DNA from: Bacteroidales bacterium
GTDB lineage: Bacteria; Bacteroidota; Bacteroidia; Bacteroidales; F082
Assembly (NCBI GenBank): GCA_017537965.1
Contig: JAFYJV010000021.1
Coordinates: 2,132 to 66,131 of the forward strand
Length of the DNA stretch: 64,000 bases
Reading direction: 5' to 3'
Below are positions 1 through 14,055 of this stretch, piece by piece. Under the pieces are notes generated by a model, which worked only from the letters and a program-made list of their open reading frames with translations, ran no database searches and was not told where the DNA came from. The translations under genes and the position numbers were made by a program. How positions within the stretch are numbered: position 1 is the first letter of the stretch; each line of letters starts with the position of its first letter.

Positions 1-717
1 GGCTTCGGCCACCGCTTCTGGGTCATCGACGACAAGGCAACCATCGCCGAACTCGTTGAACTCTTCGCCACCAAGGTCCCGGCCATGTACATCGCCGACG
101 GTCACCACCGCAGCGCTGCTGCCGCCCTCGTCGGCCAAGAGAAAAAAGAGAAGAACCCTGCCCACACCGGCAAGGAGGAGTACAACTACTTCATGACCGT
201 CATCTTCCCTGACAACCAGCTGAACGTCATCGACTACAACCGCGTCGTCAAGGATTTGAATGGCTTAAGCAAAGACGAGTTCATTAAGGCCCTCGACAAG
301 ACCTACGTCGTCGAAGACATGGGCACCGAGATCTACAAGCCGGCTAAGCTTCACGAGCACAGCATGTACTTGGATGGTCACTGGTACAAGATGAGCGCAA
401 GACCTGGCACCTACGACGACAACGACCCCATCGGCGTTCTCGACGTGACCATCTTGAGCAACAACGTCTTGGACAACATCCTGGGCATCAAGGACCTCCG
501 TACCGACAAGCGTATCGACTTCGTTGGCGGTATCCGCGGCCTCGGCGAGCTGAAGCGTCGTGTTGACAATGGTGAAATGAAGGTTGCATTCGCAATGTAT
601 CCTGTTTCGATGAAGCAGATCATCGACATCGCCGACACTGGCAACATCATGCCTCCCAAGACCACTTGGTTTGAGCCGAAACTCAGATCAGGACTGGTGA
701 TACATACGCTGGATTGA
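1..717 (+). CDS. DUF1015 family protein (5' end outside window)
   Basis: Frame 1 is open from nt 1 (GFGHRFWVIDD...). ADGHHR motif and overall sequence are typical of DUF1015. The stop is followed by a hairpin terminator. Confidence 0.8.
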   Translation, partial: GFGHRFWVIDDKATIAELVELFATKVPAMYIADGHHRSAAAALVGQEKKEKNPAHTGKEEYNYFMTVIFPDNQLNVIDYNRVVKDLNGLSKDEFIKALDKTYVVEDMGTEIYKPAKLHEHSMYLDGHWYKMSARPGTYDDNDPIGVLDVTILSNNVLDNILGIKDLRTDKRIDFVGGIRGLGELKRRVDNGEMKVAFAMYPVSMKQIIDIADTGNIMPPKTTWFEPKLRSGLVIHTLD

Positions 718-738
718 TTCGGGCAGATGCCTAAAGAA

Positions 739-776
739 AAACCACGGGGCAAAAATTTGTTCCGTGGTTTTGTTTT
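739..776. terminator. Bidirectional rho-independent terminator
   Basis: AAACCACGG-N14-CCGTGGTTT with a T-run on the right and an A-run on the left. It lies between the DUF1015 stop and the distal end of the cassette array. Confidence 0.6.
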
Positions 777-779
777 ATA

Positions 780-803
780 CCCTCAATCCGTGTCGGGCGC
801 AAC
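780..803 (-). repeat. Array repeat copy 1 (orphan distal copy)
   Basis: CCCTCAATCCGTGTCGGGCGCAAC. It lies 9 nt beyond the stop of the last cassette gene. No ORF lies to its left before the terminator. Confidence 0.9.
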
Positions 804-812
804 TATTTGGGT

Positions 813-1865
813 TTATTCTCTTTTTTCTTTCTTCAACAAATCGACAATGAATTTAGTTGAAAGGTCCTTCAGCTTTACAGGATAGTCATTCCATGTGTCC
901 GCATAATCCGTCTCTTCTTTGCTGGTGGTTCGGGGCAGCAAAGAATATGTTTCCCACAGATGTCCCGTTTCGCGTGTAAATACTACTTTCCTGGCACAGC
1001 AGGTCTCCAGCCCTCCAATCAACTCCTCACGGCTCACATCCTCGCCTTTTTCATCAAGAATTGACTGCATCTTGCGGACATCGCTTCCGTTCAGATACCT
1101 GAATTCGGAAAGAATCCTGTGGTACTCTCCCGAAGCAAGATCCACATCCACGCTAACACCCAATTCAATAGGACCGTATGTTTTTCTCAAAGCCTCTTTT
1201 CCTTTAGGCACAAATTTTATAACCGGATACAACTTTTTGTTAAACAATTCGTCTTTCAGCGATTCAAACTCCTCTTCGGTGAGTGGTAGCGCAAACTCCA
1301 AAGGGTCAAAAAAGCCTCTCAACGACCTTCCCATTTGCCAATAATTCGCCACTAATCGCACATAGGGTCCTTCAACGGGTTGCTCAGTATTAGCAGTTTT
1401 GCTTCTCTCCATCAATGTCGATAGCAACAGGCGCAGTTTACATAATGAGCCATCTTTGGCGGTGACAACTTTTCGTAAATCATTTTCTTCAACCACTATC
1501 ACTTCAAGAGAATCACCCATGGCAATATACACATCAATGCGAGCCCAATGTAATACTACCTTTTTAAATGGTTCATGATTGTTCTTGATGAGAATCTCGT
1601 TTTCGATATAATCTATGAGATACCCTCGATTCTTTTTGACATAGGGAGCTCCATCGTTATTAGGAACTGATACGGGAATGGGAATCCGCATAGGGAACGT
1701 CTTTAGTCCATCTATGAACTTCTCTTCCAGCTCATAACAATTGTTCTTGACAGCGGCGTCTCCTTCATTGATGTCATATCCAATGAAATACTGGTAACCG
1801 AGAATCATCTCTGGTGTCACTACTTTGCCAAGTCTCTCCTCAAGGAACAATGTTGTTTCTTCCAT
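813..1865 (-). CDS. Cassette protein, 350 aa, no recognisable family
   Basis: Long ORF starting 9 nt after repeat copy 2. No signal peptide or TM segment seen. Confidence 0.8.
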   Translation of the reverse strand: MEETTLFLEERLGKVVTPEMILGYQYFIGYDINEGDAAVKNNCYELEEKFIDGLKTFPMRIPIPVSVPNNDGAPYVKKNRGYLIDYIENEILIKNNHEPFKKVVLHWARIDVYIAMGDSLEVIVVEENDLRKVVTAKDGSLCKLRLLLSTLMERSKTANTEQPVEGPYVRLVANYWQMGRSLRGFFDPLEFALPLTEEEFESLKDELFNKKLYPVIKFVPKGKEALRKTYGPIELGVSVDVDLASGEYHRILSEFRYLNGSDVRKMQSILDEKGEDVSREELIGGLETCCARKVVFTRETGHLWETYSLLPRTTSKEETDYADTWNDYPVKLKDLSTKFIVDLLKKEKRE

Positions 1866-1874
1866 CGTTTATTG

Positions 1875-1898
1875 CCCTCAATCCGTGTCGGGCGCAAC
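1875..1898 (-). repeat. Array repeat copy 2
   Basis: Identical core sequence, 9 nt upstream of the ATG at 1865. Confidence 0.9.
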
Positions 1899-1936
1899 TT
1901 CTACAAAACTCCTTTTACACTTGTCCGTTTGTATGA

Positions 1937-2383
1937 TCATTGGAGATGAATCTGACGCCATTTCTTTCCCTTTCTTACCTTAATAGAGTTGGGAGTTTCA
2001 ATTACGATTTCATCGTACTTATAAGGCACGACAATCTTGCCGCGACCATTTATAACCCCATACTTAGATTCATGAATTCTTCCAACTGGCACCCACTTTT
2101 CATCAATCACAAGTTCATCTGGCGCAATTTCTGTAATGGAGTATTCAACGTCATACGATTCCACATCCTCATTCACACAGCCGTTAAAGTGTACGGAACG
2201 TATAACACGTCGATAAAGTTTGCCATTCTTTTTAATAATCTCACAATCGCCCACCTCTGGTTCTTTATTACTATCAAATGACGATCCATACGACGACCAT
2301 CTCTTTGTGGGATAGCCTCTTGAATCACATCCTTCAAAATCATAATATTCGTGTCCTGGGTGGATTTCATATATTGTTCCCAT
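1937..2383 (-). CDS. Cassette protein, 148 aa, N-terminal YYD...CDxRGYP module plus WG-like repeat C-terminus
   Basis: The ORF-track start at 2449 reads through the repeat. The internal ATG at 2383 (MGTIYEIH...) has the same spacing to the repeat as the other cassettes. The C-terminus KYGVINGRGKIVVPYKYDEI resembles WG/KWG repeats. Confidence 0.75.
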   Translation of the reverse strand: MGTIYEIHPGHEYYDFEGCDSRGYPTKRWSSYGSSFDSNKEPEVGDCEIIKKNGKLYRRVIRSVHFNGCVNEDVESYDVEYSITEIAPDELVIDEKWVPVGRIHESKYGVINGRGKIVVPYKYDEIVIETPNSIKVRKGKKWRQIHLQ

Positions 2384-2393
2384 ATTCTCAATA

Positions 2394-2417
2394 CCCTCAA
2401 TCCGTGTCGGGCACAAC
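2394..2417 (-). repeat. Array repeat copy 3
   Basis: CCCTCAATCCGTGTCGGGCACAAC (one G to A change), 10 nt upstream of the ATG at 2383. Confidence 0.9.
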
Positions 2418-2421
2418 TTTT

Positions 2422-2859
2422 TTAGGTTAAATCCGTCAAGTATTGCCATGCTCGCAGGTATTTCCGAAGCCGTTTCACATCCTCGTCAGTAATTTCCTTT
2501 AAGCGACGAATGTCCATATTATCCTCTAAATCAGCCCTTTTCACTTCTTTGCCAATGGGATTTATCGAGGCACGACGTACAAATTCTTCATAGGTTTCCC
2601 CTTCATGTTTTGTCACAGATAATATTCCTTCGACAATTTCTTCAGGAAACCCTTGTTCTTGAAGATATTCTCCCGTTACATCAGTATCCTCTAGGGTGTC
2701 GTGCAACAATGCCACAATTTTTGCCTTCGGATCCTTGCATCGTTCAGCCACACGTATCGGATGCATCACATACTCACGGCCCAATTTGTCCTTTTGTCCC
2801 TCGTGTGCTCGGATAGCAATCTTAAGAGCAAGGTCAACTAATTCGCTATAGTCTTTCAT
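2422..2859 (-). CDS. HD-domain small alarmone hydrolase, (p)ppGpp/(p)ppApp hydrolase family (RelA/SpoT hydrolase-like)
   Basis: AHEGQKDKLGREYVMHPIRVA and LLHDTLEDT motifs match the SpoT/Mesh1-type HD hydrolase domain. It is a single domain of 145 aa and the second gene of the cassette behind repeat copy 4. Confidence 0.8.
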   Translation of the reverse strand: MKDYSELVDLALKIAIRAHEGQKDKLGREYVMHPIRVAERCKDPKAKIVALLHDTLEDTDVTGEYLQEQGFPEEIVEGILSVTKHEGETYEEFVRRASINPIGKEVKRADLEDNMDIRRLKEITDEDVKRLRKYLRAWQYLTDLT

Positions 2860-2872
2860 TTTATATTCTTAA

Positions 2873-3160
2873 CTAATGTGCATAATATCCGTGTCTTATA
2901 CCGTTATCATCCAAGAAATATTTAAGAGAGTCAAAATGAAAGCGTTCCTTTATAACCTTGAACAAACCTTCAATCGTATCAACTTTGAGCGCTTTCATCA
3001 GTTCATACACATCAACATTGAAAATGTCTCGTTCAATACTAGCGTCCTCCCAGCAACTGAATTCGCCATTTTCCACAGCAGCACCGTAACCATGGGAGAA
3101 TATCTCACTTTTATTTTGCAATTCCTTAACTTGAGACTTATCCTTTCCTTTTTCTTCCAT
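2873..3160 (-). CDS. Cassette protein, 95 aa, unknown
   Basis: ORF starts 9 nt after repeat copy 4 and lies 13 nt upstream of the HD hydrolase gene. Confidence 0.65.
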   Translation of the reverse strand: MEEKGKDKSQVKELQNKSEIFSHGYGAAVENGEFSCWEDASIERDIFNVDVYELMKALKVDTIEGLFKVIKERFHFDSLKYFLDDNGIRHGYYAH

Positions 3161-3169
3161 TCTTTCATA

Positions 3170-3193
3170 CCCTCAATCCGTGTCGGGCGCAAC
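3170..3193 (-). repeat. Array repeat copy 4
   Basis: Identical core sequence, 9 nt upstream of the ATG at 3160. Confidence 0.9.
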
Positions 3194-3203
3194 TGTTAAT
3201 TGC

Positions 3204-3584
3204 CTATTGATTAATACTATAATACCATATCCCAATAATGACCAACAAGTGCAGCAGTTGGTCGAATCCATAGAGCATCCAATAGGGCTTCTTCTGCTGG
3301 TCGGCCAGTAATGGAAAACGGGCTGTTAGAATGCCTTTGGTTGTATCGATAAGGAAATGCGAAACAAGTTCCGCGAGCATGAGGAGCAGCAAGAGTTTCC
3401 ACGGCACGCCAAAAACCAGCAGGCACACTCCCACCAGCAGCGAATGGATACCTGCATGAAGCAAGATTGGCCACGCCTTTCTCCCATCCGCCTTGGCCCG
3501 TATCATAGAGGGCGTGGTGAAGCAGAAATCGGCCAGATAGTGGCCTATCAACAAAAATATGAGCAAGACAGCATTCATATCCAT
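3204..3584 (-). CDS. DUF3307-like small membrane protein
   Basis: Multi-TM protein with HYLADF...HxL...SHFLIDxxK pattern typical of DUF3307. Start chosen at MDMNAVLL (3584). The longer ORF-track N-terminus overlaps the upstream gene. Confidence 0.65.
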   Translation of the reverse strand: MDMNAVLLIFLLIGHYLADFCFTTPSMIRAKADGRKAWPILLHAGIHSLLVGVCLLVFGVPWKLLLLLMLAELVSHFLIDTTKGILTARFPLLADQQKKPYWMLYGFDQLLHLLVIIGIWYYSINQ

Positions 3585-3676
3585 TGCTTTATCAGGTAGT
3601 CCATGTCGGGACACCTTCAGGCTATCCAGACCTACCAATGTATCAAGGTAAACCTTAGTGTTGATGTTCAAAGATT

Positions 3677-3883
3677 TCACCCTTCCCAATCCCGCCACTT
3701 GATTACCGTGTGTATCTCCGTTCCATCTGGACAATATTCAACAAAATCACCACCTGGATCAACGGACGTTTCATACTCTTCGCCTGTATATCTTATTTCT
3801 CTAATTGGATAGCCACGAGCATCGCATTGGCCTGAATCCATATCGTAGTACACTTCAGCTACTCGTACAATATATCTTCCCAT
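3677..3883 (-). CDS. Cassette protein, 68 aa, paralogous to the N-terminus of the 1937-2383 product
   Basis: MGRYIVRVAEVYYDMDSGQCDARGYP aligns with MGTIYEIHPGHEYYDFEGCDSRGYP. It starts 9 nt after repeat copy 5. Confidence 0.65.
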   Translation of the reverse strand: MGRYIVRVAEVYYDMDSGQCDARGYPIREIRYTGEEYETSVDPGGDFVEYCPDGTEIHTVIKWRDWEG

Positions 3884-3892
3884 GTTTTAATA

Positions 3893-3916
3893 CCCTCAAT
3901 CCGTGTCGGGCGCAAC
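3893..3916 (-). repeat. Array repeat copy 5
   Basis: Identical core sequence, 9 nt upstream of the ATG at 3883. Confidence 0.9.
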
Positions 3917-3974
3917 TTTTATTTATCTGATTGATTCCGTTTCTTATTCCCAGACGTATTGAATAGCTGAACCG

Positions 3975-5027
3975 CTACCATTTTTTTGTGGCAACTCTGT
4001 TATCTGATGATTCAATTTCTATCATAGCATTATGGATTTGTTTTTTAATTTCATCAACATTTTTCTCCTCGAAATAGTTTTTGATCCTTTCCATATCTTC
4101 TATAAACGAAGGCTTTCTTTCTATAATATCCCATGGTTTGGAGGCCCTAAGACTGATATCCCCCTGTCTCATCCCAATAATAGAATAATACGCTATATGA
4201 TGTTGATCAAGTTCAGTTAGACCGATTATCTTATCAAGCTTTTGATACATTTCATCCTCTTTGTCGTGGGAAAGTCGTTTGCGCGTTATCCATGAACAAC
4301 ACTCTTTCAATGCGCTATTGATTTCGGAGATTGCATCTGACAACCCCTTGTATTCTTTTCCTAAGATAGTGACACTCTCACTAAGACTGAAATGATCAGA
4401 AACACGAAGATCAAAACCCTCCTCGGATTTCAATTCCATAATCGCATCACGAAAATCCTGACAAGCAGCCATATCTATCAAATCAACGATATGTACATAA
4501 TCATCTGGCTCTGGAATATCGCCTACTGATACGCCTTCCACAATCACACTTGTATTGAATATCCTGCCTTGATATTCAAACCAATTGTGACCAGAACTTC
4601 GAATATCGACAGTCTCCCCTCTTTCCCTTGCATATTTTTCAATCTTACATGCCACTTCACCGACAAAACACTCTTCCTTCCAGTCATCCAACTTTTTATC
4701 ATAAAAATCATAACATTCCACTTTGACAGATTCGGTTTTAGTGGGCTCTTCTTCCACTTCCTCAACTTCATCATGATTTTGCGGATTTCTATAAACGTCT
4801 GTCTTGTCTTTCTTCAATTGCTGCACTTCCTCTTTTGTTTCAATCGCTTTTTCGTCCTTGATCTCCACCCCCTCATCCTCGGTGACGAGCATACTTGACG
4901 GACCGGGATTGGGAACATCGGTTTGGGAATCCTTTTCTCTTTTGTTCTTTATTCTTGCGGCAAAAACAACCATAATCGCAAACAAAACCGCCGCCGTGAT
5001 AAGTAATAACAATTCTATTGTATCCAT
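3975..5027 (-). CDS. Cassette protein, about 350 aa, N-terminal membrane anchor and acidic/lysine-rich linker
   Basis: ATG at 5027 (MDTIELLLLITAAVLFAIMVVFAA...). The ORF-track TTG start at 5042 lies inside the repeat. Confidence 0.8.
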   Translation of the reverse strand: MDTIELLLLITAAVLFAIMVVFAARIKNKREKDSQTDVPNPGPSSMLVTEDEGVEIKDEKAIETKEEVQQLKKDKTDVYRNPQNHDEVEEVEEEPTKTESVKVECYDFYDKKLDDWKEECFVGEVACKIEKYARERGETVDIRSSGHNWFEYQGRIFNTSVIVEGVSVGDIPEPDDYVHIVDLIDMAACQDFRDAIMELKSEEGFDLRVSDHFSLSESVTILGKEYKGLSDAISEINSALKECCSWITRKRLSHDKEDEMYQKLDKIIGLTELDQHHIAYYSIIGMRQGDISLRASKPWDIIERKPSFIEDMERIKNYFEEKNVDEIKKQIHNAMIEIESSDNRVATKKW

Positions 5028-5035
5028 ATTCCATA

Positions 5036-5059
5036 CCCTCAATCCGTGTCGGGCGCAAC
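5036..5059 (-). repeat. Array repeat copy 6
   Basis: Identical core sequence, 8 nt upstream of the ATG at 5027. Confidence 0.9.
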
Positions 5060-5066
5060 TGTTATA

Positions 5067-5870
5067 TTAATCATATTTTGATTTCAACTCAAGCAATGTC
5101 TTTGATTCTGGATGCCAACTAAGTCCAGACTTGATGTAGTCTTTTATCAGAGCTTCCTCGTCGCCACCAAACAAGGGCTTCCCCAAGGCGAGAGCCGCCT
5201 CAAACGCCCTGATGCAAATGACGTATGACCTTTCTGGAGGATTGGATCTCATCACTTTGTCCAAGCATTCATGAGCCCCCATCCAAGCTGTTTGGATCAA
5301 ACCTGGAATCGTGTTTTGCAAATCAAGCATCGACTCGCTATACTCAAGGACCAGAGGTGTCCTGTTCAATTCGCTGAAAAACGCCAAATCAGATCGTTTC
5401 GTGTTGCCAAAGGTCTGGGAACAAGCGCTGAAATCACCTTTGCGGTGTTGCGCTTCGAGCAGCAACAAATCTGGCATCATAGATGTGGGAAACTCCTCAT
5501 GGAACTTTTTCGCTTTCTGTTCCGCTTCTTCGTACTTTCCTTGCTTCAGCAGCGCATGTATTTCATCCCAAGTGTTTTCGTGAAAGATAAAGTCCCACCC
5601 CATTGTACCTAATTCTTGCTTGTCAAACAATGGCCACCGTCGGTTCTCTTCGGTGACTGTCTCAGGTTCTTCCTTTCTTGTCAACGGCTCTTTCTTCATT
5701 GGCTTCTCTTTTGTTTTCACAGACTCTTGCTTGACAGGAGTTGCCTTATCGACCTGCCGTTTATTAGGCTGTTTATCGCCTTTAGCATCCTTTACAATCT
5801 TACATATCGCTCCAATAATAGGAAGCAAAAAAGCCGCAATACCAATAGCAATGATCACAGTATAATCCAT
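5067..5870 (-). CDS. Cassette protein, 267 aa, N-terminal membrane anchor, K/E/P-rich linker, helical C-domain
   Basis: MDYTVIIAIGIAAFLLPIIGAIC... TM segment. It starts 9 nt after repeat copy 7. Confidence 0.8.
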   Translation of the reverse strand: MDYTVIIAIGIAAFLLPIIGAICKIVKDAKGDKQPNKRQVDKATPVKQESVKTKEKPMKKEPLTRKEEPETVTEENRRWPLFDKQELGTMGWDFIFHENTWDEIHALLKQGKYEEAEQKAKKFHEEFPTSMMPDLLLLEAQHRKGDFSACSQTFGNTKRSDLAFFSELNRTPLVLEYSESMLDLQNTIPGLIQTAWMGAHECLDKVMRSNPPERSYVICIRAFEAALALGKPLFGGDEEALIKDYIKSGLSWHPESKTLLELKSKYD

Positions 5871-5879
5871 AATTCATCA

Positions 5880-5903
5880 CCCTCAATCCGTGTCGGGCGC
5901 AAC
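5880..5903 (-). repeat. Array repeat copy 7
   Basis: Identical core sequence, 9 nt upstream of the ATG at 5870. Confidence 0.9.
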
Positions 5904-5912
5904 TTTTAGTTT

Positions 5913-6497
5913 TCAGCTAAAGATATCTAATCCCTTTAAAATCACGTAAATAATAGTCGTAAGCGCAGTAGCGGCTCCAACAGAAGTTAAAATCTTTTCT
6001 CCCAATCCCACACCGGATGGTAATCCAAAAACAACACAGACGGTTATTGCAATCGCCTCAAACACCACCCATAAACCACATATGATCCAAAAAGTTTTTG
6101 TTAATGACAAAGTTTTCGGCCATCCGATGCGTTCCAACGGCTTTCTGATGCGATCCAAAGTGGCATCCACCTTGTTGAAAAGCTCCTTTCTGCGGTAGGC
6201 TCTTGCTGCAGCTTTTTTCTGTTTGTCTGCTTTTTTGGATAACCTATTGTATTCCTTCCATGTAATTTTTTTAAGATCATAAAACACGTCCAAATCTAAC
6301 GTATCTTCGTATGTATAATGTTCAGATTCACTAGCCCGACATGTAAGGCGGTACGGAGACCCCTTAAAGACAACCGCGCCTTTTTCAAGACTTGAACTGA
6401 AATTCCATTCTTCATCTCTATCCAAAGGCCAATATTGTTTCTGAGCACCATCCTCTGGCACTATCCTATAATAACACGTTTCATAATATCTGTCCAT
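5913..6497 (-). CDS. Cassette protein, 194 aa, C-terminal double TM segment
   Basis: Starts 9 nt after repeat copy 8. Hydrophobic stretches are FWIICGLWVVFEAIAITVCVVFG and VGAATALTTIIYVIL. Confidence 0.8.
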   Translation of the reverse strand: MDRYYETCYYRIVPEDGAQKQYWPLDRDEEWNFSSSLEKGAVVFKGSPYRLTCRASESEHYTYEDTLDLDVFYDLKKITWKEYNRLSKKADKQKKAAARAYRRKELFNKVDATLDRIRKPLERIGWPKTLSLTKTFWIICGLWVVFEAIAITVCVVFGLPSGVGLGEKILTSVGAATALTTIIYVILKGLDIFS

Positions 6498-6506
6498 GGT
6501 TTAATG

Positions 6507-6530
6507 CCCTTAATCCGTGTCGGGCACAAC
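6507..6530 (-). repeat. Array repeat copy 8
   Basis: CCCTTAATCCGTGTCGGGCACAAC (two changes), 9 nt upstream of the ATG at 6497. Confidence 0.9.
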
Positions 6531-6557
6531 TTTTATTGTTAATAAACAATTAGGCTG

Positions 6558-8480
6558 CTATTTGTTTGTTTTCTCCTTGATTAGCGGAACTATCACTTCC
6601 TCAATAGCCTGTCTACTCAAGCGGTGCTCGCCATGGAAATGAACGACATTTTTGTAATGCTGCATGAAAATGTCCTCGCAGTTCACCGTGGTATCGTTGT
6701 CGGCGAAAAGACCATAGACGTTTTCTTTATCCTCTTTTGTAATGTCGTCAAATTGCCGCGCTTCCATGTCAACAAAGTGTTGGATGATTTCGGGCGTGAT
6801 GGTGAAGGTCTTTTCTCCATCACGGCGCGGGTTCAGGAACTCGTACGTACCTTCTTTCAACAAGTGCTGACCTGATTTCTTGAAAAGCCAGCTTAATAAC
6901 GTTTTCTTTCCAGCATCCTCAGTGACTTTCGACAGATAAAACGCCGGATTGATACAGATGCGCTTGTACACGCCCCATTCCTGCCCCATGTGTTCGTTGA
7001 GGACAATGTGTCGACATGCGTTTTGCGACATCATCGCCGCATACATGCCACCCATGCTGGTGCCCACGATCACTTCGGGTCTCAAGTTGGTGGATAGTCC
7101 TTTCAAAAATGGCAATGCCGTTGTTGGATCAATCGGAATGTCGGGAGCAAGGACAATCCAATCGGGCAACAATTCACGAAGTGTTTTCACCGTACTACCT
7201 TCTCCTGAAGAACCAAATCCATGGAAATAAAGCAACAACTTATCGCTTTCTTTGTCAGCTCTACTATATTCAATCCGTTTCTTTTCGAGGTAGGAACAAA
7301 AATCATCAAGCGAATTGTATCTTTGGTACCAGGCCACTTTAAAACGTTTTTTCATCATTTCAACAAAACCAGCCATAGTATTCACAGCATAAATCTCTTC
7401 GTGGCTTAAGAATGAAACCATGTCAACACCTGAAACTTCACAATAGCGGTGCTTTCCCGTGAGCCAATTCCATTTATGCTCTCGTAGACCCATCTTTCCG
7501 TCCAATATACTCAAGAACAGAATGTAGTTTCCGCCTGCACCACCCGTGTTCATTCTTATAGCTCCATTATAACCAGTCATCCAGGCACTGCATTCTCTTT
7601 TTTTATAATAGGTGGCAAAGGCGCTTTCAGGTATTCCCGATTTATAACGGTTAATGTCAGATACTGATTCAGGTATGACGGTTCCTTTGCATCCTACCAA
7701 AAGCTTATTTGTGGCAGTTTCAATAATGGCATTGCAATTGTCACGAGAATCAAATACTTTGTTTTGCTCATCCACGGTAATGGTTGTCAGACTGTCACAT
7801 CCATCAAAAAGATGCCATATAGTAGCACCTGATATTTCCTCCAATGAAGCAGGAAGATGTATGGACTTAAGGCTTTTGCAGTTTGTAAAAGCATTAGCAG
7901 CGATTCTCTTCACTGTTTCAGGAATATTTACCTTCTCCAAAGCCACACATCCATCAAATAGATCGTGAGGTATATCTTCCAAACCCGAGGGCAATATCAC
8001 TTCCTTCAGGCGAGTACAGTTCGCAAAACTTTCTTCCTTCAATTCTCTCACAGAGATGGGAATAGTGATACTTGAAATGGTAGCGTTGCCTTTGAAAGCA
8101 TCGGCATTTATGGCTACAACAGGCTTCGCACCGATCTCACAAGGAATCACTACAACCGCATTGCTGCCGATATACTTTATTATGGAGCAGGTACCCTCTT
8201 CGTGGTTTACCGCTAACCTGAAATCTTGTGTTGATACGACTTCGCCAATTCTCTTAACAGTTACTATCGCATATTCATCAACATCCGAACCACCATGTTC
8301 CTTTATCTCGCGAATGGTGAAATCCTCATGAACGCTGTCAATACGATAGGTTATTCCACCATTGAATGACAGCACATCGCCATATTCTGGGAGATGCCCC
8401 ATACTATAAAAGTCGGGTTTCAACTTTTGACCCGTATCTTTATCATAGTATTCGATATAATCATAGCTTTTGTGATACAT
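6558..8480 (-). CDS. Fusion protein: BspA-type leucine-rich repeats plus C-terminal alpha/beta-hydrolase (YqiA/UPF0227-like esterase)
   Basis: Repeated IPxSVxxIxxxAFxxCxxLxxI units (LRR_5 type). The C-terminal part has LLYFHGFGSSGEG and a GTSMGG nucleophile elbow. ATG at 8480 (MYHKSYDY). No signal peptide. Confidence 0.8.
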   Translation of the reverse strand: MYHKSYDYIEYYDKDTGQKLKPDFYSMGHLPEYGDVLSFNGGITYRIDSVHEDFTIREIKEHGGSDVDEYAIVTVKRIGEVVSTQDFRLAVNHEEGTCSIIKYIGSNAVVVIPCEIGAKPVVAINADAFKGNATISSITIPISVRELKEESFANCTRLKEVILPSGLEDIPHDLFDGCVALEKVNIPETVKRIAANAFTNCKSLKSIHLPASLEEISGATIWHLFDGCDSLTTITVDEQNKVFDSRDNCNAIIETATNKLLVGCKGTVIPESVSDINRYKSGIPESAFATYYKKRECSAWMTGYNGAIRMNTGGAGGNYILFLSILDGKMGLREHKWNWLTGKHRYCEVSGVDMVSFLSHEEIYAVNTMAGFVEMMKKRFKVAWYQRYNSLDDFCSYLEKKRIEYSRADKESDKLLLYFHGFGSSGEGSTVKTLRELLPDWIVLAPDIPIDPTTALPFLKGLSTNLRPEVIVGTSMGGMYAAMMSQNACRHIVLNEHMGQEWGVYKRICINPAFYLSKVTEDAGKKTLLSWLFKKSGQHLLKEGTYEFLNPRRDGEKTFTITPEIIQHFVDMEARQFDDITKEDKENVYGLFADNDTTVNCEDIFMQHYKNVVHFHGEHRLSRQAIEEVIVPLIKEKTNK

Positions 8481-8489
8481 TTCCCTATA

Positions 8490-8513
8490 CCCTGATTCCG
8501 TGTCGGGCGCAAC
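8490..8513 (-). repeat. Array repeat copy 9
   Basis: CCCTGATTCCGTGTCGGGCGCAAC (two changes), 9 nt upstream of the ATG at 8480. Confidence 0.9.
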
Positions 8514-8521
8514 AATAAGTG

Positions 8522-9874
8522 TTAATCCTTGAAAACTATTTTTACTCCTCTCGGAAGGCAACTTTGAATGTTTTCATATAATTTACGACTGATGACGATA
8601 CTTAGGTTTTTGAGCATGTCGTTGTGTAAAAAGAAAATCTCGCCTACGGCATACTGAATATTGTCAGGCATCACCACCTCTTTTAGGCCATCGCAGCAAT
8701 AGAAGACGCTTTCGGCGAAACTAGTGACCGAGTCTGGAATGACAACCTTCTCCAAATGATCATTCATATTGAACGTGTTGCTTTCCAACTTGTGGATGGT
8801 ATCTGGAACGACAAACTCCTTGGCCTCCTTGTTGATGGGATACAACAACAAATGCTCCCCTGCCTTGTCATACAAAACCCCATCAAGCGAAGAGAACACG
8901 TTGTTCGACGGAGACACCTCTATCTCTTTCAATTTCATGCAGTTGTAGAAAGCATACCGGTCAATGCGATTGACAGAAGCAGGAATGACGACTTTTTCAA
9001 GGTGCTCGCATTCGCGAAACGTATGGCCATAAATGGCATGGATGGTATTCGGAACAGAAAACGCTTTTGCTTCCCTGTTCATGGAATAGGCGACCAACTC
9101 CTCAACTGACTTGTCATACAGGACCCCATCAATCGATGCATATTGTTGGTTTGCAGGATCAACAACGATCTCTTTCAGGTTTTTGCACAATATCAGTCCT
9201 CCCCCTGATTCGATTTTAGTCACTGATGCGGGGATAGTGATCGTCTCCATTGAGTCACAGCCTGTAAATGCGCCGTCGCCTATCGTTTCCAAGTTCGGGG
9301 ACAGATCGATATGGGCAAGCGATTTGCAATTACAGAAAGCGCCACTGCAGACGGCCGTTACACTGTCAGGGATTTCAACGTGTTCAAGCGACTCACAGCC
9401 CGTGAACATCCCCTTTGAAATGCATTTATGTTTTTCGCAGTTGGTGATGTGAACGGTTTTCAAGTTCTTGCAATCCTCGAATATCCCGTATGTATTTTTG
9501 TCAAGCCAGACATGGTCTGGGATATCCACCTCTCTCAGTCCTTCTATTTCTTTGTATTGACGAGAGACAAGGAAACTGGAATCGATCGCAATCCTTCCGC
9601 TACGATGCACTTTGAATTTCGTATCGTAACCTATTTTGGCACTCGCATACCCATCCTCGTCAAAATCCGACAACTCCTCGAACGAAGGAGAGACTACTAT
9701 ATGGAATTTGTCGTCGAAGTACTTCAAGATGCCCCACAGGCCATATTTTCGGACCTTGATATAGGACACCTCGGTAGTTTTCTCGATGACATCACACCGT
9801 GACACCCACGAATCGCTCACTTCCGGGTATTCGAGGGTCTCACAGTCATTATTGATCAGTTCGGTTGTGCTCAT
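8522..9874 (-). CDS. Cytosolic BspA-type leucine-rich repeat protein (first gene of the array)
   Basis: Many IPxSVxxIxxxAFxxCxxLxxI repeats and no signal peptide. It is the only array gene without a full repeat upstream. Confidence 0.85.
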   Translation of the reverse strand: MSTTELINNDCETLEYPEVSDSWVSRCDVIEKTTEVSYIKVRKYGLWGILKYFDDKFHIVVSPSFEELSDFDEDGYASAKIGYDTKFKVHRSGRIAIDSSFLVSRQYKEIEGLREVDIPDHVWLDKNTYGIFEDCKNLKTVHITNCEKHKCISKGMFTGCESLEHVEIPDSVTAVCSGAFCNCKSLAHIDLSPNLETIGDGAFTGCDSMETITIPASVTKIESGGGLILCKNLKEIVVDPANQQYASIDGVLYDKSVEELVAYSMNREAKAFSVPNTIHAIYGHTFRECEHLEKVVIPASVNRIDRYAFYNCMKLKEIEVSPSNNVFSSLDGVLYDKAGEHLLLYPINKEAKEFVVPDTIHKLESNTFNMNDHLEKVVIPDSVTSFAESVFYCCDGLKEVVMPDNIQYAVGEIFFLHNDMLKNLSIVISRKLYENIQSCLPRGVKIVFKD

Positions 9875-10012
9875 TTTATTAATCCTCTATGAATTCCATC
9901 TTGACATCTTCGTCAGTGAACAACCTTTTGTTTTCTTCGTAGGTTTCCTTGGTTGTTTGTATTGTTTTCAAATTCGGAGTATCTTCCCATTTTGTATTGT
10001 TTTTGAGATGGA

Positions 10013-10020
10013 CAAAGATA
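10013..10020 (-). promoter_or_regulatory. Candidate -7 box (TATCTTTG) for the cassette array
   Basis: Plus-strand CAAAGATA reads as the Bacteroidetes TAnnTTTG consensus on the minus strand, about 140 nt upstream of the first array ATG. Confidence 0.35.
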
Positions 10021-10032
10021 CCGCTTTTTTCT

Positions 10033-10040
10033 TACTTTTG
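10033..10040 (+). promoter_or_regulatory. Candidate -7 box (TACTTTTG) for xerD
   Basis: Matches TAnnTTTG but sits only 10 nt before the ATG at 10051, which would give a very short leader. Confidence 0.3.
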
Positions 10041-10050
10041 CAAGACAAAG

Positions 10051-10998
10051 ATGAACAAGTCTTCTGCAAATATCAGCCCCAATCTCATCAAGCACTACGC
10101 CGACCATCTGCGGCTAGAACTTTCATTGTCCGACAACAGCGTGGATGCCTATCGCCATGATGTCAACCTATTTCTGCAATATCTTGAAAGCCAGAGCTAT
10201 CCAACTGATATCAGCGCCATCACACAAGACACCATTGAGAATTTCTTCGCCTATCTCTATGACTTGAACATCGGCGCCACGTCGCAAGCCCGTATCCTAT
10301 CAGGCTTGAAGTCGTTTTGGCGCTATCTGATCCAAGAAGACCTGGCTGAAAAAGACCCTTGCGAACTCATCACCTCTCCTACGCTTGGCCGTCATCTTCC
10401 TGAAGTGTTGAGTTTCGAAGAGATTCAGAAAATGATCGACAGCATCGACCTCAGCCAGCCCACAGGCCATCGCAACAAAGCCATGATCGAAGTGATGTAC
10501 GGCTGCGGCTTGCGCGTTTCCGAGCTCATAGGACTACAAATCAGCAACATTTACCGCAAAGACGGATTCCTCCGCATCACCGGCAAAGGCAGCAAGGAAA
10601 GGCTCGTCCCCATCGGCGACAGCAGCTTGAAGATCCTATATCAGTACATTGAAGGCGCCAGACTTCACATCACACCGAAACCCAAATACACCGACACCGT
10701 CTTCCTTAATAGTCGCGGCACAGGCTTGACGCGACAAACAGTCTTCCTACTGGTAAAGGAACTCGCTGAAAAGAACGGCATCAAAAAGGCCATCAGCCCG
10801 CACACCTTCCGTCACAGCTTCGCCACGCACCTGCTCGAAGGCGGTGCCAACCTTCTGGCCGTACAGCAGATGCTCGGTCATGCCAGCGTCAGCACCACCG
10901 AGATCTATACGCACATTTCAGATGATCTATTACGGGAAACCCTAACGGAATTCCATCCGCGACTTAAACACAGACAGAAGATAACTCCTAACTCCTAA
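10051..10998 (+). CDS. xerD: Tyrosine site-specific recombinase XerD
   Basis: The N-terminal SAM-like domain and the catalytic motifs GLRVSEL, HTFRHSFATHLL and LGHASVSTTEIYTH fit the XerC/XerD family. Start taken at MNKSSANI; the ORF-track TTG at 9949 is unlikely. Confidence 0.85.
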   Translation: MNKSSANISPNLIKHYADHLRLELSLSDNSVDAYRHDVNLFLQYLESQSYPTDISAITQDTIENFFAYLYDLNIGATSQARILSGLKSFWRYLIQEDLAEKDPCELITSPTLGRHLPEVLSFEEIQKMIDSIDLSQPTGHRNKAMIEVMYGCGLRVSELIGLQISNIYRKDGFLRITGKGSKERLVPIGDSSLKILYQYIEGARLHITPKPKYTDTVFLNSRGTGLTRQTVFLLVKELAEKNGIKKAISPHTFRHSFATHLLEGGANLLAVQQMLGHASVSTTEIYTHISDDLLRETLTEFHPRLKHRQKITPNS

Positions 10999-11009
10999 CT
11001 CCCAACTAA
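10982..11009. repeat. Heptamer tract (TAACTCC x3 plus CAACTAA)
   Basis: Tandem 7-nt units contain the stop codons of both convergent genes (xerD TAA at 10996-10998; minus-strand gene stop at 11006-11008). Confidence 0.8.
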
Positions 11010-11455
11010 ATTATGTTTCCTTGGTCATCGACAAGGACTCCCCAGCTTACTGCTGTCATCGTCTCTCCATCAAAGAAAAAATCGATCATGGCGTCCTCGA
11101 AGGAGACTCTATGCTCGCCATCCTCGTCTTCCTCTTCCAATTCCGAGAAGCCATTTTGGCGCATCAACTCGATCACCTGGGCGCGACTAAGGTCGAAAAC
11201 CTTAGTGCCATACAACACCGAATCCTCATTCTCAGTCTCAAAGCAAGCGGCAACCGACTTGGTGATGCCCTCAAAATAGATGCTGGTGGCCAAAGCATCG
11301 TATTGATAGTATATGGAACGGTTCCCAGTCTCCTCCATATCGTTGAGTTCTTCATAAAAATCGGGCATTCCCAGCATTTTCACTGCATCGTCCAAAGGCA
11401 TTCCGAAAGGTATTTGGCCGAAACCTTTCAACGGCTCAATCAGATAGTTTTCCAT
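11006..11455 (-). CDS. Hypothetical acidic protein, 149 aa
   Basis: Clean ORF convergent with xerD. No family recognised. Confidence 0.7.
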   Translation of the reverse strand: MENYLIEPLKGFGQIPFGMPLDDAVKMLGMPDFYEELNDMEETGNRSIYYQYDALATSIYFEGITKSVAACFETENEDSVLYGTKVFDLSRAQVIELMRQNGFSELEEEDEDGEHRVSFEDAMIDFFFDGETMTAVSWGVLVDDQGNII

Positions 11456-11549
11456 TAATCAACATGTTTTTTTTCGTGCCGTGAAAATAACCCTTTTTAT
11501 TGACATGGAAGCGCAAAAAGAAATTTAAATTGATTCTAAATTATTACCA

Positions 11550-12773
11550 TCATTCGAATCGAATGGATCTTGACGGACGGATCCTGTTGATAATGGCAGT
11601 GGGAATCAGAAGCAAAAGCATCCAAAGAACAAAAGCACCGATATTCAAGGCAAGCACAGTGGACAAGTGTAACTCAATAGGAACTGCGGAAAGGTAATAC
11701 GTAGCAGGATTCAGATGGATAAAGCCTGTTGCTTGTTGTAAAAGACAGAATCCAAGTCCAAGGGCATTGCCGATAAGCATCCCAATTAGCAAGATACGGA
11801 TGGCACGGTGCAAGAACACCCGACGCACGAAACGGTCAGATGCACCCATTGCCTTCAAAAGGCCTACAGTGGAGGTCTTCTCAATGATGATGATCAAGAG
11901 CATGGAAACCATGGTAATGCCGGCAACAAGAAACATCAAGGCAAGAATCAGCCACACGTTGGTGTCGAGCAGATCGAGCCAGTCGAAAACCTGTGGATTG
12001 GAATCGCGCGCCGTGTAAGAGGCGAGTGTCGGTGGAATGTTATAATAGAGCGAAGCGTTCACGGCATCCGTCTGTTCCCAGCTGTCAGTCCACACCTCAA
12101 CGAGGCCAGTCTCATCCCCTTCCCAATGGTTGAGTTTCCTGATCTGGTTCAGGTCGCAGAACACATAACGCTCATCGAATTCAGAGAAACCTGTCTCAAA
12201 GACACCTGTGACATTGAATTTTCGGCCTCTTGCCTCCATGTCCTCATCGATGAACCACACTCTCATGGCATCGCCCACCTTCAGCAGCATTTTGTCGGCG
12301 ATGCTTTTTGAGATCAGCACCGCATCCGAACGGCCCTCGTCTTCATACTTCGGAACCTCACCTTGAAGCAATGCTTGCTCGAAATAAGACCAGTCATAGT
12401 CGGCTCCAACGCCTTTCATGACCACACCTTGAATCTCTTCGTCGGTCTTGATCATGCCCGCCTTGTTGGCAACACATTGATAATGACGGATTCCATCGGT
12501 ATGCTCCAAACAATTGCGAAGGCGTTCGTCCAGGCCGAAAGGTGTCTCTTCATAGGACTCATTCATGTCGAGCGATTGAAGATGAATGGGAGCCACAAAG
12601 CCAACCACTTTGGCGCGGATCTGGTTTTTGAAGCCAACGACCACTGCCAGGGAGATGATCATCACGGTAATCGCCAATGCCACGCTGGTCACGGCAAGAC
12701 GCATCACCGTCGAAGAGAGATGATCTTTCGAGAGTGAAAACAGCCTATCGGAGATGAATTTGGAGCCTGACAT
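11550..12773 (-). CDS. ABC transporter permease, FtsX/LolE family
   Basis: N-terminal TM, large periplasmic MacB-like domain and a C-terminal FtsX-type 3-TM bundle. 407 aa. Confidence 0.8.
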   Translation of the reverse strand: MSGSKFISDRLFSLSKDHLSSTVMRLAVTSVALAITVMIISLAVVVGFKNQIRAKVVGFVAPIHLQSLDMNESYEETPFGLDERLRNCLEHTDGIRHYQCVANKAGMIKTDEEIQGVVMKGVGADYDWSYFEQALLQGEVPKYEDEGRSDAVLISKSIADKMLLKVGDAMRVWFIDEDMEARGRKFNVTGVFETGFSEFDERYVFCDLNQIRKLNHWEGDETGLVEVWTDSWEQTDAVNASLYYNIPPTLASYTARDSNPQVFDWLDLLDTNVWLILALMFLVAGITMVSMLLIIIIEKTSTVGLLKAMGASDRFVRRVFLHRAIRILLIGMLIGNALGLGFCLLQQATGFIHLNPATYYLSAVPIELHLSTVLALNIGAFVLWMLLLLIPTAIINRIRPSRSIRFE

Positions 12774-12795
12774 GCGTTTTAGAAAGATTTTGCAT

Positions 12796-12811
12796 TATTT
12801 TTGCAAAAATA
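12796..12811. promoter_or_regulatory. Back-to-back divergent -7 boxes (TATTTTTGCAAAAATA)
   Basis: A perfect 16-bp palindrome made of TAnnTTTG on each strand. It is about 25-30 nt from the ATGs at 12829 (+) and 12773 (-). Confidence 0.5.
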
Positions 12812-12828
12812 CGAATCATCAACGAAAT

Positions 12829-14025
12829 ATGAATTGCAAAATGAGAAATAACATACGATTCATCTTGTTTTTAATGTTTGGAATGAGCCTTTCTTTCCAA
12901 GGCAATGCCCAATCAATCAAGCTGATTCCCAAGGAACAATATGTTTATGGGGCACTTGACACGGAGAACTATTTCCGTCTGCTCACCGACCAAAACGTAG
13001 GCGTGGTGGCCAACCAAACCAGCATCGTGGGAGACACCCATCTCGTCGATACTCTTTTAGCCGTCGGCATCAACGTAAAACGGATCTTCACCCCGGAACA
13101 CGGCTTCCGGGGCGCCGCTGACGCCGGCGCCAAGGTCATAGGTGGCAAGGATGAAAAGACCGGTATCGAAATAGCCTCGCTGTACGGCAAGACCAAGAAA
13201 CCCACGCCCGAGATGCTCAAGGATATCGACGTCATGCTCTTCGACCTTCAAGATGTGGGCGTGCGTTACTATACCTACATCTCCACCTTGACATACGTCA
13301 TGGAGGCCTGCGCCGAGCAAGACATCCCCGTCATCGTACTCGACCGCCCCAACCCCAATGGATTCTATATCGACGGACCCGTTTTGAAGGCTGAGAACAA
13401 ATCGTTCGTAGGTCTCCATCCCGTCCCTGTTGCGTATGGCATGACCATCGGCGAATACGCCAAGATGGTGAACTGTGAAGGCTGGATGAAGGATGGCGCC
13501 CACTGCGAGCTCACCGTTGTTTCCATCGCAGGTTACGATCGCAACGCCATCTACGAATTGCCTGTGAAACCGTCACCCAACCTGCCTAACTGGGAGTCAG
13601 TGTACCTCTACCCTTCCCTCTGCTTCTTCGAGGGCACCATCGTCAGCGTGGGACGCGGCACCGACAAGCCATTCCAGATATTCGGCCATCCCGATTTGAG
13701 AGGCGACTACAGTTTCACACCAGAGAGCAAGAGCGGCGCTTCCAAGCCCATGTTTGAAGGCCAGCGTTGCCGAGGCTTGGATCTGACCGACTATGCCCAC
13801 GACTACACCATCAACCCCGCCCAACTCCAACTGGAATGGCTCATCAGCGCCTATCATCAACTGAAGGACAAGTCGTTTTTCACAAATTACTTCCGTTTGC
13901 TCTCAGGCGACAATCAGCTTCAACGCGACATCGAAAACGGAAAAAGCGAGGAAGAAATCCGTGCTTCGTGGCAGGACGATATTGAGGCGTTCAAGGAAAT
14001 TCGGACGAAGTATTTAATATACTGA
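12829..14025 (+). CDS. DUF1343 family protein (NamZ-like exo-beta-N-acetylmuramidase)
   Basis: Signal peptide followed by VGVVANQTS...FTPEHGFRG...LDRPNP motifs typical of DUF1343. The start is 12829 or 12841. Confidence 0.8.
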   Translation: MNCKMRNNIRFILFLMFGMSLSFQGNAQSIKLIPKEQYVYGALDTENYFRLLTDQNVGVVANQTSIVGDTHLVDTLLAVGINVKRIFTPEHGFRGAADAGAKVIGGKDEKTGIEIASLYGKTKKPTPEMLKDIDVMLFDLQDVGVRYYTYISTLTYVMEACAEQDIPVIVLDRPNPNGFYIDGPVLKAENKSFVGLHPVPVAYGMTIGEYAKMVNCEGWMKDGAHCELTVVSIAGYDRNAIYELPVKPSPNLPNWESVYLYPSLCFFEGTIVSVGRGTDKPFQIFGHPDLRGDYSFTPESKSGASKPMFEGQRCRGLDLTDYAHDYTINPAQLQLEWLISAYHQLKDKSFFTNYFRLLSGDNQLQRDIENGKSEEEIRASWQDDIEAFKEIRTKYLIY

Positions 14026-14055
14026 GGTTCTGTTCAACTTCAACCACGACCCACT

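Follow-up and report, generated by a model that had tools for sequence, protein, structure and literature searches.

Among the described gene arrays with which the present locus can be compared, the closest in outline are the rAID-1 arrays of Bacteroidales (rAID for recombinase-associated acquired interbacterial defence), which are recognised by a XerD-like recombinase on the 5' side, sharing 44% identity or more (E <= 1e-100) with BF9343_RS08045, and by at least two downstream genes co-directional with it, at a GC content of 41% or less that is skewed relative to recombinase and genome (Ross et al. 2019, 10.1101/471110). Conserved intergenic motifs have been described for rAID-1, the name under which Bacteroidales arrays with such repeats now go, and the biogenesis of its arrays is explicitly left unsolved (PMC12247911). 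Further points of comparison are integrons, the IMEX and pdif modules bounded by short sites, and Shine-Dalgarno (SD) leaders. This study concerns a cassette-like array of ~9 kb in a 64,000-nt stretch of a Bacteroidales genome (assembly GCA_017537965.1, contig JAFYJV010000021.1; the whole stretch is referred to as the window), in which a 24-nt direct repeat, termed R, stands before every gene unit except the first. The locus is real and uncommon. A first-pass annotation of the window had interpreted it as an integron-like platform served by the adjacent XerD-type recombinase, and had raised a possible relation to rAID-1. The most interesting result of the present analysis is R itself, an order-wide element anchored to the start codon. 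The best reading, to which a joint probability of about 0.5 is assigned, is that R serves as a portable leader for expression while its copies are also points of recombination, that XerD is incidental, and that the array is a set of horizontally acquired accessory genes in a strain-variable hot spot on the chromosome of a Limimorpha-like member of Bacteroidales from the rumen or gut.

The 24-mer CCCTCAATCCGTGTCGGGCGCAAC matches the plus strand of the window nine times, with 0-2 mismatches and always in the same orientation. Shuffled sequence contains no match, the number of copies expected by chance is 0, and a tenth copy is absent from the 64-kb window even when up to six mismatches are allowed; all the coordinates first annotated were confirmed. 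In the sense of the array genes these plus-strand matches are a minus-strand element, and R denotes this gene-sense form, GTTGCGCCCGACACGGATTGAGGG (GTTGCGCCCGACACGGAATCAGGG in copy 1). Counted from the xerD side, copies 1 (8490-8513), 2 (6507-6530), 3 (5880-5903), 4 (5036-5059), 5 (3893-3916), 6 (3170-3193), 7 (2394-2417) and 8 (1875-1898) lie 9, 9, 9, 8, 9, 9, 10 and 9 nt, respectively, before the ATG of the genes c2, c3, c4, c5, c6a, c7a, c8 and c9, and the stop codon of the preceding gene is 4-58 nt from R. Copy 9 (780-803) is an orphan: it leads no gene and directly adjoins a terminator, as had been described. The array comprises eleven co-oriented open reading frames (ORFs) on the minus strand, ten of which fall within eight R-bounded units, while c1, the xerD-proximal gene, is the sole unit start without an R in front; the gene count, the number of units and both ranges of gaps remain as they were first given. 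The site of the array is the interval between a DUF1015 gene and xerD, and its GC content of 42.5% (37-48% for single cassettes) is below that of the left flank (53.7%), of xerD (50.6%) and of the rest of the window (49.8%), in line with the AT-richness already noticed.

R is composed of an invariant 17-nt core, GTTGYGCCCGACACGGA, often preceded by TTARAA, and followed by 3-5 variable nt, by an AGGG motif located 8-10 nt before the ATG, and by the ATG itself. Across the loci compared (designated by L numbers), 69 copies have an ORF behind them; in 56 of these, 14-17 nt separate the end of the core from the ATG, and in 60 the G-run stops 8-11 nt short of it. All gene-followed copies are oriented with their gene, and the arrays of L003, L004 and L081 have the pattern (R-gene)n, not (gene-R)n. 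The fixed spacing to the ATG, the shared orientation and this order of elements indicate that R belongs to the 5' side of the following gene. Moreover, 38 of 72 copies lie within 90 nt behind a co-oriented ORF, and the Bacteroidetes -7 box TAnnTTTG is found up to 90 nt upstream of 16 of the 72 (3 of 72 for a control window), at distances of 2-82 nt between box and R. Given these upstream ORFs and boxes, R lies within transcripts, either at an internal junction or in a 5' untranslated region (UTR).

An orthologous gene encoding a 214-aa lipoprotein is preceded by a promoter and UTR of its own in seven loci and by an R leader in L151, where the native sequence resumes ~8 nt before the ATG; at the equivalent position of L159, R leads the gene of a 234-aa lipoprotein. 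R is in this sense an exchangeable leader, and its composition is atypical of the genome. In the window, an SD-like 4-mer occurs upstream of only 3 of 43 ORFs outside the array, and the GC content of the R core is 71%, compared with an average of 36% in the -35 to -16 region of the window ORF leaders. On this anatomy, R would act on the mRNA, enabling a promoterless and SD-poor cistron to be translated, processed or stabilised on its own, and it would be portable across Bacteroidales, both at internal gene junctions and within 5' UTRs.

The distribution of R beyond the locus was surveyed in species-representative genomes (596 Gb) with a 17-nt degenerate pattern. This pattern is too loose, and the stretches which it listed, at least 120, are mostly chance matches in GC-rich genomes outside Bacteroidales, so that the Bacteroidales sample is small and unsystematic. 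In this sample, R is carried by at least ~25 stretches of 8 kb, belonging to Prevotella, Muribaculaceae, Paludibacteraceae, Sodaliphilus, Limimorpha and, in addition, metagenome-assembled genomes (MAGs) from the rumen. Among those listed, XerD is also present in L117 only; L081 adjoins DUF1015, and its xerD may lie just outside the stretch. In L080 and L083 the 5-6 kb upstream hold housekeeping genes and no recombinase, and arrays of six (L310) and five (L061) copies of R occur with no xerD in the fetched stretch. The linkage between repeat and recombinase on which the first-pass annotation relied was therefore not upheld, since R stands before unrelated genes in many Bacteroidales MAGs with no recombinase in the stretch, a pattern which that annotation had itself named as contrary to its proposal. 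R was also found in five IMG/VR contigs, PLSDB and INPHARED gave chance matches only, and scanning viral contigs with a XerD profile yielded nothing but distant phage integrases, without R. A literature search with the sequence of R produced only unrelated primer matches.

Two groups of genes were observed next to R in this survey. AAA-ATPase/PDDEXK_9-type multi-copy genes or fragments, with the N-terminus M..RKYPVGIQ and the C-terminus ..WNGKRIFEVI, flank R in L310 (3-1529 and 6223-6346), L151 (3027-4577) and L117 (6870-7335), the distance from their stop codon to R being ~10 nt in L151 and ~140 nt in L310. In L305 and L310, R lies closely downstream of AAA_14/DUF4143 genes.

The content of the DUF1015|xerD interval depends on the strain. 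Contigs with identical XerD carry the same 11 genes, and relatives whose XerD is 89-92% identical carry four genes (L003), two (L004-L006) or none (L007-L009) between unchanged flanks, so that the comparison of this syntenic interval suggested at first annotation did reveal 0, 2, 4 or 11 genes at a fixed position. Over 24 loci, the gap between DUF1015 and xerD ranges from 88 nt to 9.3 kb, and the inserted genes are mostly on the minus strand. The empty site of L007 consists, in order, of the promoter box, 11 nt, one intact R and the terminator; on the right, the junction exactly matches the one at the window copy at 780, and on the left, the site starts in the same way as the DNA ahead of the first R in L003. 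The presence of a single R at this empty site supports gain or loss at R, the observed junctions being those of either a product of R x R exchange or a target into which cassettes insert.

Junctions at R are also seen elsewhere. A 1.2-kb block common to the window and L310 (86% identical) stops exactly past the first 17 nt of R, in copy 7, and its opposite end falls inside a gene, not at R. Remnants reduced to the core occur at L310:6092, L312:1648 and L305:767, and in L162. The last of these loci (XerD 75% identical) has, at ~890-910, a truncated and degenerate R, GTTGCGTCCGGCAC, fused to the DUF1015 terminator, which indicates that the terminal R is older than the split between these lineages. 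The gene for the Aph1-like HD protein comes last in the L081 array, where R leads it directly, and second in a two-gene unit in the window. The DUF3307 gene stands behind three different partners in the window, L003 and L310, the homologue of c6b in the L003 array being 74% identical. On a larger scale, the left flank (DUF1015, 1-779) has 93% nucleotide identity to L004 and L007, and the right flank (10000-16000, from xerD onward) 75-81%; the hot spot is thus also a boundary between differently diverged segments, as expected if recombination or transfer ended in the interval.

Since the same 24-30 nt recur in every unit, the copies of R can serve as crossover points. Exchange between two of them would add, delete and reshuffle units and would leave one R at an emptied site, and both homologous and enzyme-driven exchange are compatible with the junctions, which are themselves observed. 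Several results weigh against R as an expression leader that recombines in this way. No fold was found for R on either strand, R with its flanks reaching -5.0 kcal/mol (z = +0.65 relative to shuffles); Rfam has no match for R, either at E <= 5 on positions 1-12000 or at the gathering threshold on the whole window, where three tRNAs and one chance match were returned; and in an exploratory comparison the pairing of R with the window tRNAs or with a Bacteroides 16S 3' end was no better than that of shuffles. Bacteroidetes are not generally known to use SD pairing, and a ribosome site based on AGGG would hence be atypical. Furthermore, the breakpoints lie repeatedly just past the 17-nt core, more like a defined crossover than a random homologous exchange, and an intact orphan R without a gene, as at window position 780 and in L007, is not explained by an expression role alone. 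R is also commoner in the xerD-adjacent interval than in the flanking 10 kb, which leaves room for Xer action.

An undescribed order-wide cassette system of Bacteroidales, distinct from integrons and rAID-1, can be put forward only tentatively. Its features would be the invariant 17-nt core at the junctions of promoterless units, a crossover just 3' of the core, an SD-like tail placing the start of the following gene 8-10 nt away, and either a trans-acting recombinase or the host Xer proteins. If such a system were true, its units would drop into operons or before start codons genome-wide, carrying their own translation signal. It is likewise doubtful that R is principally the site of a trans-acting recombinase within an order-wide system, whose units would insert before start codons or into operons, expression being secondary. 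The invariance of the core across Prevotella, Muribaculaceae, Paludibacteraceae, Limimorpha and other MAGs would follow from such a site, as would the core-only remnants joined to unrelated DNA, the replacement of a native leader by R in an orthologous gene with a junction ~8 nt before the ATG, and the varied orders and partners in which Aph1-like HD, DUF3307 and UPF0227 genes are met in the window, L003, L081, L305 and L310. However, no such recombinase co-occurs with R in the stretches examined, and the far end of the block shared by the window and L310 is inside a gene rather than at R. Moreover, an identical repeat of 24-30 nt suffices for rare homologous exchange, so a special enzyme is not required.

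The neighbouring recombinase gene, xerD (10051-10998, plus strand), encodes a protein of 315 aa and is divergent from the array. The product passes the NCBIfam XerD equivalog TIGR02225 (340.8 bits, cut-off 329.6) and does not pass the integron-integrase models (139 bits, cut-off 265; 82 bits, cut-off 435), in accordance with its first description as XerD-like and not IntI-like. Its close homologues number thousands, the best 120 clusters being 84-100% identical, and in metagenomic contigs the gene order DUF1015, xerD, a 149-aa gene (p149), FtsX permease and NamZ is kept down to ~53% XerD identity. The equivalog score and the conserved synteny identify it as the core xerD of the chromosome. The gene downstream (11006-11455) is convergent with xerD and conserved in all relatives, and the 64 kb contain no second tyrosine recombinase gene.

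R accompanies this core gene irregularly, being present in ~9 of 25 DUF1015|xerD intervals and missing from 16 of ~25. Only four of 80 XerD-centred metagenome loci have it, each time in the upstream interval, and none was found within 10 kb of XerD orthologues of 49-66% identity. XerD is probably a neighbour of the array rather than its dedicated integrase, and the adjacency would reflect a permissive hot spot. The integron logic proposed in the first-pass annotation thus survives in part: the single promoter, the cassettes and their gain or loss at R were retained, and the role of XerD as the integrase of the array was not, the gene being core and syntenic and R being absent from most of its loci.

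A strict platform of that kind, with R as attachment site and XerD, together with XerC, moving circular promoterless cassettes, is accordingly improbable. It would account for the back-to-back arrangement of the divergent recombinase gene and array promoter, for the one R left at the empty site of L007, for a cassette number that varies between fixed flanks, for the crossover-like junctions just past the 17-nt core, and for the proximity of R to xerD in L149 and L152 (108-109 nt) and in L117, L151 and L159. It is opposed by the core, syntenic nature of xerD and by the intervals and distant orthologue loci devoid of R, and most of the R copies listed share their 8-kb stretch with no XerD, the 5-6 kb upstream being clear of it in L080 and L083. 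In addition, R has neither dyad symmetry nor a hairpin nor likeness to the dif predicted for Bacteroidetes, the window has no GC-skew switch, and a pure DNA site does not explain the fixed spacing to the ATG.

Other variation was observed around xerD. An Acyl_transf_3 gene lies between xerD and the 149-aa gene in L007 (10941-11987), L008 and L009, strains in which the upstream interval is empty; variation thus also occurs beyond xerD, at a second site, which lacks R. In distant relatives, the DUF1015|xerD gap of ~260-320 nt has a conserved plus-strand ORF of 58 aa (MExxxxVLExLKxAxKPLKSGEIA...), which is carried by L175, L178, L179, L187, L189, L194 and L198 (53-58% XerD identity) and is absent from the window lineage.

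Transcription of the array appears to depend on signals at its two ends. Three TAnnTTTG boxes are present on the array strand, and one of them is intergenic, TATCTTTG at 10013-10020 (minus strand); it is conserved in the window, L003, L004 and L007 and is the putative single promoter of the array. It lies back to back with TACTTTTG at 10033-10040 (plus strand), the -7 box of xerD as read from sequence. Counted from the array box, the leader of c1 measures 138 nt, and the gaps between array genes are too short for standard promoters. One promoter for the whole array is therefore plausible, which agrees, at the level of motifs, with the single shared promoter region first suggested. The transcription start would most likely be set by the box at 10013-10020 (5' end ~10005). 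The end would be at a hairpin with a 15-bp stem at 738-771, with an A-run before and a T-run after it, a likely terminator shared by DUF1015 (plus strand) and the array (minus strand), which would make the array a single long polycistronic operon. Inside the c1 leader there is a 25-codon upstream ORF (9900-9977, minus strand), the first 11 nt of which, ATGGGAAGATA, equal the start of c6a (3883); it may be the leftover of an older cassette start, or chance.

The shortness of the gaps also bears on the idea that R is a DNA-level regulatory site, whether an operator or a promoter recognised by an alternative sigma factor or by a dedicated polymerase, giving each cassette its own start or control point. 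R is long, orientation-specific and invariant and ends in a purine-rich AGGG near the gene start, and standard promoters do not fit between the cassettes. Nevertheless, this is quite unlikely, given that the -7 boxes 2-82 nt upstream of 16 of the 72 copies place R already within the transcript there, that a start at AGGG would leave a leader of only ~10 nt, that a length variation of 3-5 nt between core and AGGG suits a rigid promoter poorly, and that a scan for sigma-70-type promoters showed no enrichment (29 found, 22.4 expected).

The cargo, all on the minus strand, opens with c1 (8522-9874), a 450-aa BspA-type leucine-rich repeat (LRR) protein, followed by c2 (6558-8480), a 640-aa mosaic of an N-terminal module, LRR_5 and a UPF0227-type esterase. 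Three orphans with membrane segments come next: c3 (5913-6497; 194 aa), in which the segment is C-terminal; c4 (5067-5870; 267 aa), with an N-terminal anchor and a weak TPR signal; and c5 (3975-5027; 350 aa), which also has an N-terminal anchor and for which no family or PDB match was found. The first two-gene unit is led by a 68-aa orphan, c6a (3677-3883), with a 22-nt overlap into c6b (3204-3698), a 164-aa DUF3307 membrane protein without an R in front. The second is led by a 95-aa orphan, c7a (2873-3160), ahead of c7b (2422-2859), a 145-aa HD-domain (HD_4) protein homologous to Aph1. The array closes with two orphans, c8 (1937-2383; 148 aa), with a weak WG-repeat signal, and c9 (813-1865; 350 aa).

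Pfam matches in the cargo are limited to the BspA-type LRR proteins c1 and c2, the latter with its fused UPF0227 esterase, to DUF3307 and to HD_4, and the remainder is without family, as expected from the first description of the cargo as mostly orphans. PHROGs matches were obtained only for the HD and DUF3307 proteins, and PADLOC gave none for ten cargo proteins (c6a left out). The search for polymorphic-toxin immunity families proposed at first annotation was negative, none of the 11 proteins matching the Imm or SUKH families of Pfam, and the sole link to immunity is the Aph1-type c7b. This protein is a full-length homologue of Aph1 (PDB 7SMG, E 8.7e-52), a (p)ppApp-specific hydrolase which acts as an enzymatic immunity protein against (p)ppApp-synthetase toxins and is phage-encoded beside a MuF toxin gene (PMC10083569). 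No (p)ppApp synthetase toxin gene lies near c7b, which is in this sense an orphan; it is plausibly a detoxifying or immunity enzyme, and its Aph1-likeness and orphan status fit a defensive role for at least the c7b cassette.

A related set of genes was observed in L305, on a contig of 224 kb, where one R heads a six-gene operon (4687-7815) encoding a 130-aa protein, an HD protein, NT5C, a 144-aa protein, an Aph1-like HD_4 protein and a DUF3307 protein, with no xerD within 7 kb of it. The nucleotide-hydrolase cargo of the window array is therefore also found away from this locus, organised as a coherent operon that one R leads.

Most of the other cargo products are true orphans. Homologues of c9 form only 19 clusters among 1.84 billion representatives, and its AF2 model is confident (pLDDT 83) and has no fold neighbour found in the PDB. 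A shared N-terminal motif in c2, c3, c6a and c8 was considered and is not claimed, the alignment being weak (22-31% identity) and mutual BLASTP matches lacking. The mosaic structure of c2 can be traced to separate genes: its N-terminal 80 aa resemble a separate cassette of L003 (57% identity), its middle is LRR_5 as in c1, and its C-terminal UPF0227 esterase resembles stand-alone cassettes in L003 (60% identity) and L310 (4344-4949). The two L003 cassettes occupy 80-520 and 925-1512 of the interval (locus positions 595-1035 and 1440-2027). From these correspondences, c2 looks like a fusion of cassettes after the intervening repeats were lost.

The rules of translation initiation and of acquired-gene expression are poorly understood in this phylum, and R is an invariant 17-nt element, shared by several Bacteroidales families, which is aimed at the start codon, usually from a distance of 14-17 nt. 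As a signal for translation or processing, R would offer foreign genes a natural adaptor for their expression and would be a useful part for engineering Prevotella or Bacteroides; as a site of recombination, it would define a new system of gene capture.

When the locus is set against known systems, its likeness to integrons lies, at the level of motifs, in a single promoter next to a divergent tyrosine recombinase gene and in promoterless co-oriented cassettes, to which a conserved junction site, one site in the emptied platform and variable content can be added. It differs in that the window has no IntI-type integrase and in the nature of the site, attC being conserved and folding in structure, whereas R is conserved in sequence and folds on neither strand, so that the initial judgement that the repeat is not attC-like was sound. 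Furthermore, R goes with the gene that follows, on its 5' side and with a constant spacing to the ATG, is also found in the 5' UTRs of single genes far from recombinases and, among the matches listed, is scattered rather than linked to an integrase locus.

Likeness to IMEX such as CTX-phi and to the pdif modules of Acinetobacter plasmids consists in modules bounded by short sites, with the host XerC/XerD, and not an integrase encoded by the element, as candidate enzyme, an idea suggested by the adjacency to xerD. R, however, has neither an 11-6-11 dyad nor a XerD arm of the TTATGTTAAAT type, and its copies are all direct, unlike pdif sites, whose orientation alternates. The dif sites predicted for Bacteroidetes are canonical and read ...ATAATnTATATTATGTTAAAT (Kono 2011 supplement). 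No dif-like site was found in the window, and R itself was rejected as a dif candidate, nothing being shared except GTTGCGC versus GGTGCGC. With SD and intercistronic leaders R has in common the fixed spacing to the start codon, AGGG at SD distance, one copy per cistron and the gene-sense orientation, but its invariant part is a GC-rich 17-nt core located upstream of the SD-like motif.

For the comparison with rAID-1, three reference arrays (L314-L316) were found via homologues of a rAID orphan immunity protein of B. fragilis 9343, rebuilt from a supplementary alignment. Each has a recombinase of 372-376 aa followed by 11-16 co-oriented genes, many of them SUKH or Imm, among the conjugation genes of an ICE (integrative and conjugative element). 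Their repeat is ~50 nt long, with invariant TAACAA and CATTA ends (AACATTA) and a central stem, and lies ~15-30 nt before the ATG. Four of the five predicted stem pairs show double, compensatory changes, at least three stem-sequence classes exist, and the rAID-1 repeat is, by this predicted stem, attC-like in the structural sense. As further observations, an IS91-type (Y2 transposase) gene lies between the recombinase and the first immunity gene in L314 (7087-8316) and L316 (7738-8967), and the neighbours of these arrays include a Toprim topoisomerase and, in L315, a relaxase and TraG.

The two systems resemble each other as AT-richer arrays of mostly short co-oriented genes beside a tyrosine recombinase gene in Bacteroidales, with a conserved sequence in every intergenic gap, a strain-dependent content and, in the window, one immunity-type enzyme, the Aph1-like c7b. 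The GC content of the window array, 42.5%, is slightly over the rAID-1 cut-off of 41% and clearly lower than that of xerD and the rest of the window. The recombinases are different: the window XerD has 32% identity (E 1e-37) to those of L314 and L315, taken as proxies for BF9343_RS08045, and the rAID-1 enzymes reach 182-185 bits with TIGR02225, far short of its cut-off and of the 340.8 bits of the window protein, their nearest models being XerA and integron-integrase. The rAID-1 array is downstream of its recombinase, co-oriented with it and located on an ICE, whereas the window array is upstream of xerD, divergent from it and without ICE context. The rAID-1 cargo is rich in Imm and SUKH proteins, compared with 0 of 11 here, and its structured repeat of ~50 nt contrasts with the unstructured 24-mer at a fixed 8-10 nt which is also used outside arrays; the rAID-1 repeat has 0 matches in the window, and R-like matches in L314-L316 are likewise 0. 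Despite the similar logic of recombinase, AT-richer array and intergenic repeats, and despite c7b, the relation to rAID-1 first raised for this array is thus extremely improbable, since recombinase, orientation, repeat and cargo all differ. A second, unrelated repeat type builds arrays of rAID-1 shape, without a dedicated recombinase and with different cargo; the rAID-1 label is not transferable to this locus, and the window array is, judged by its sequence, a parallel solution with a different repeat.

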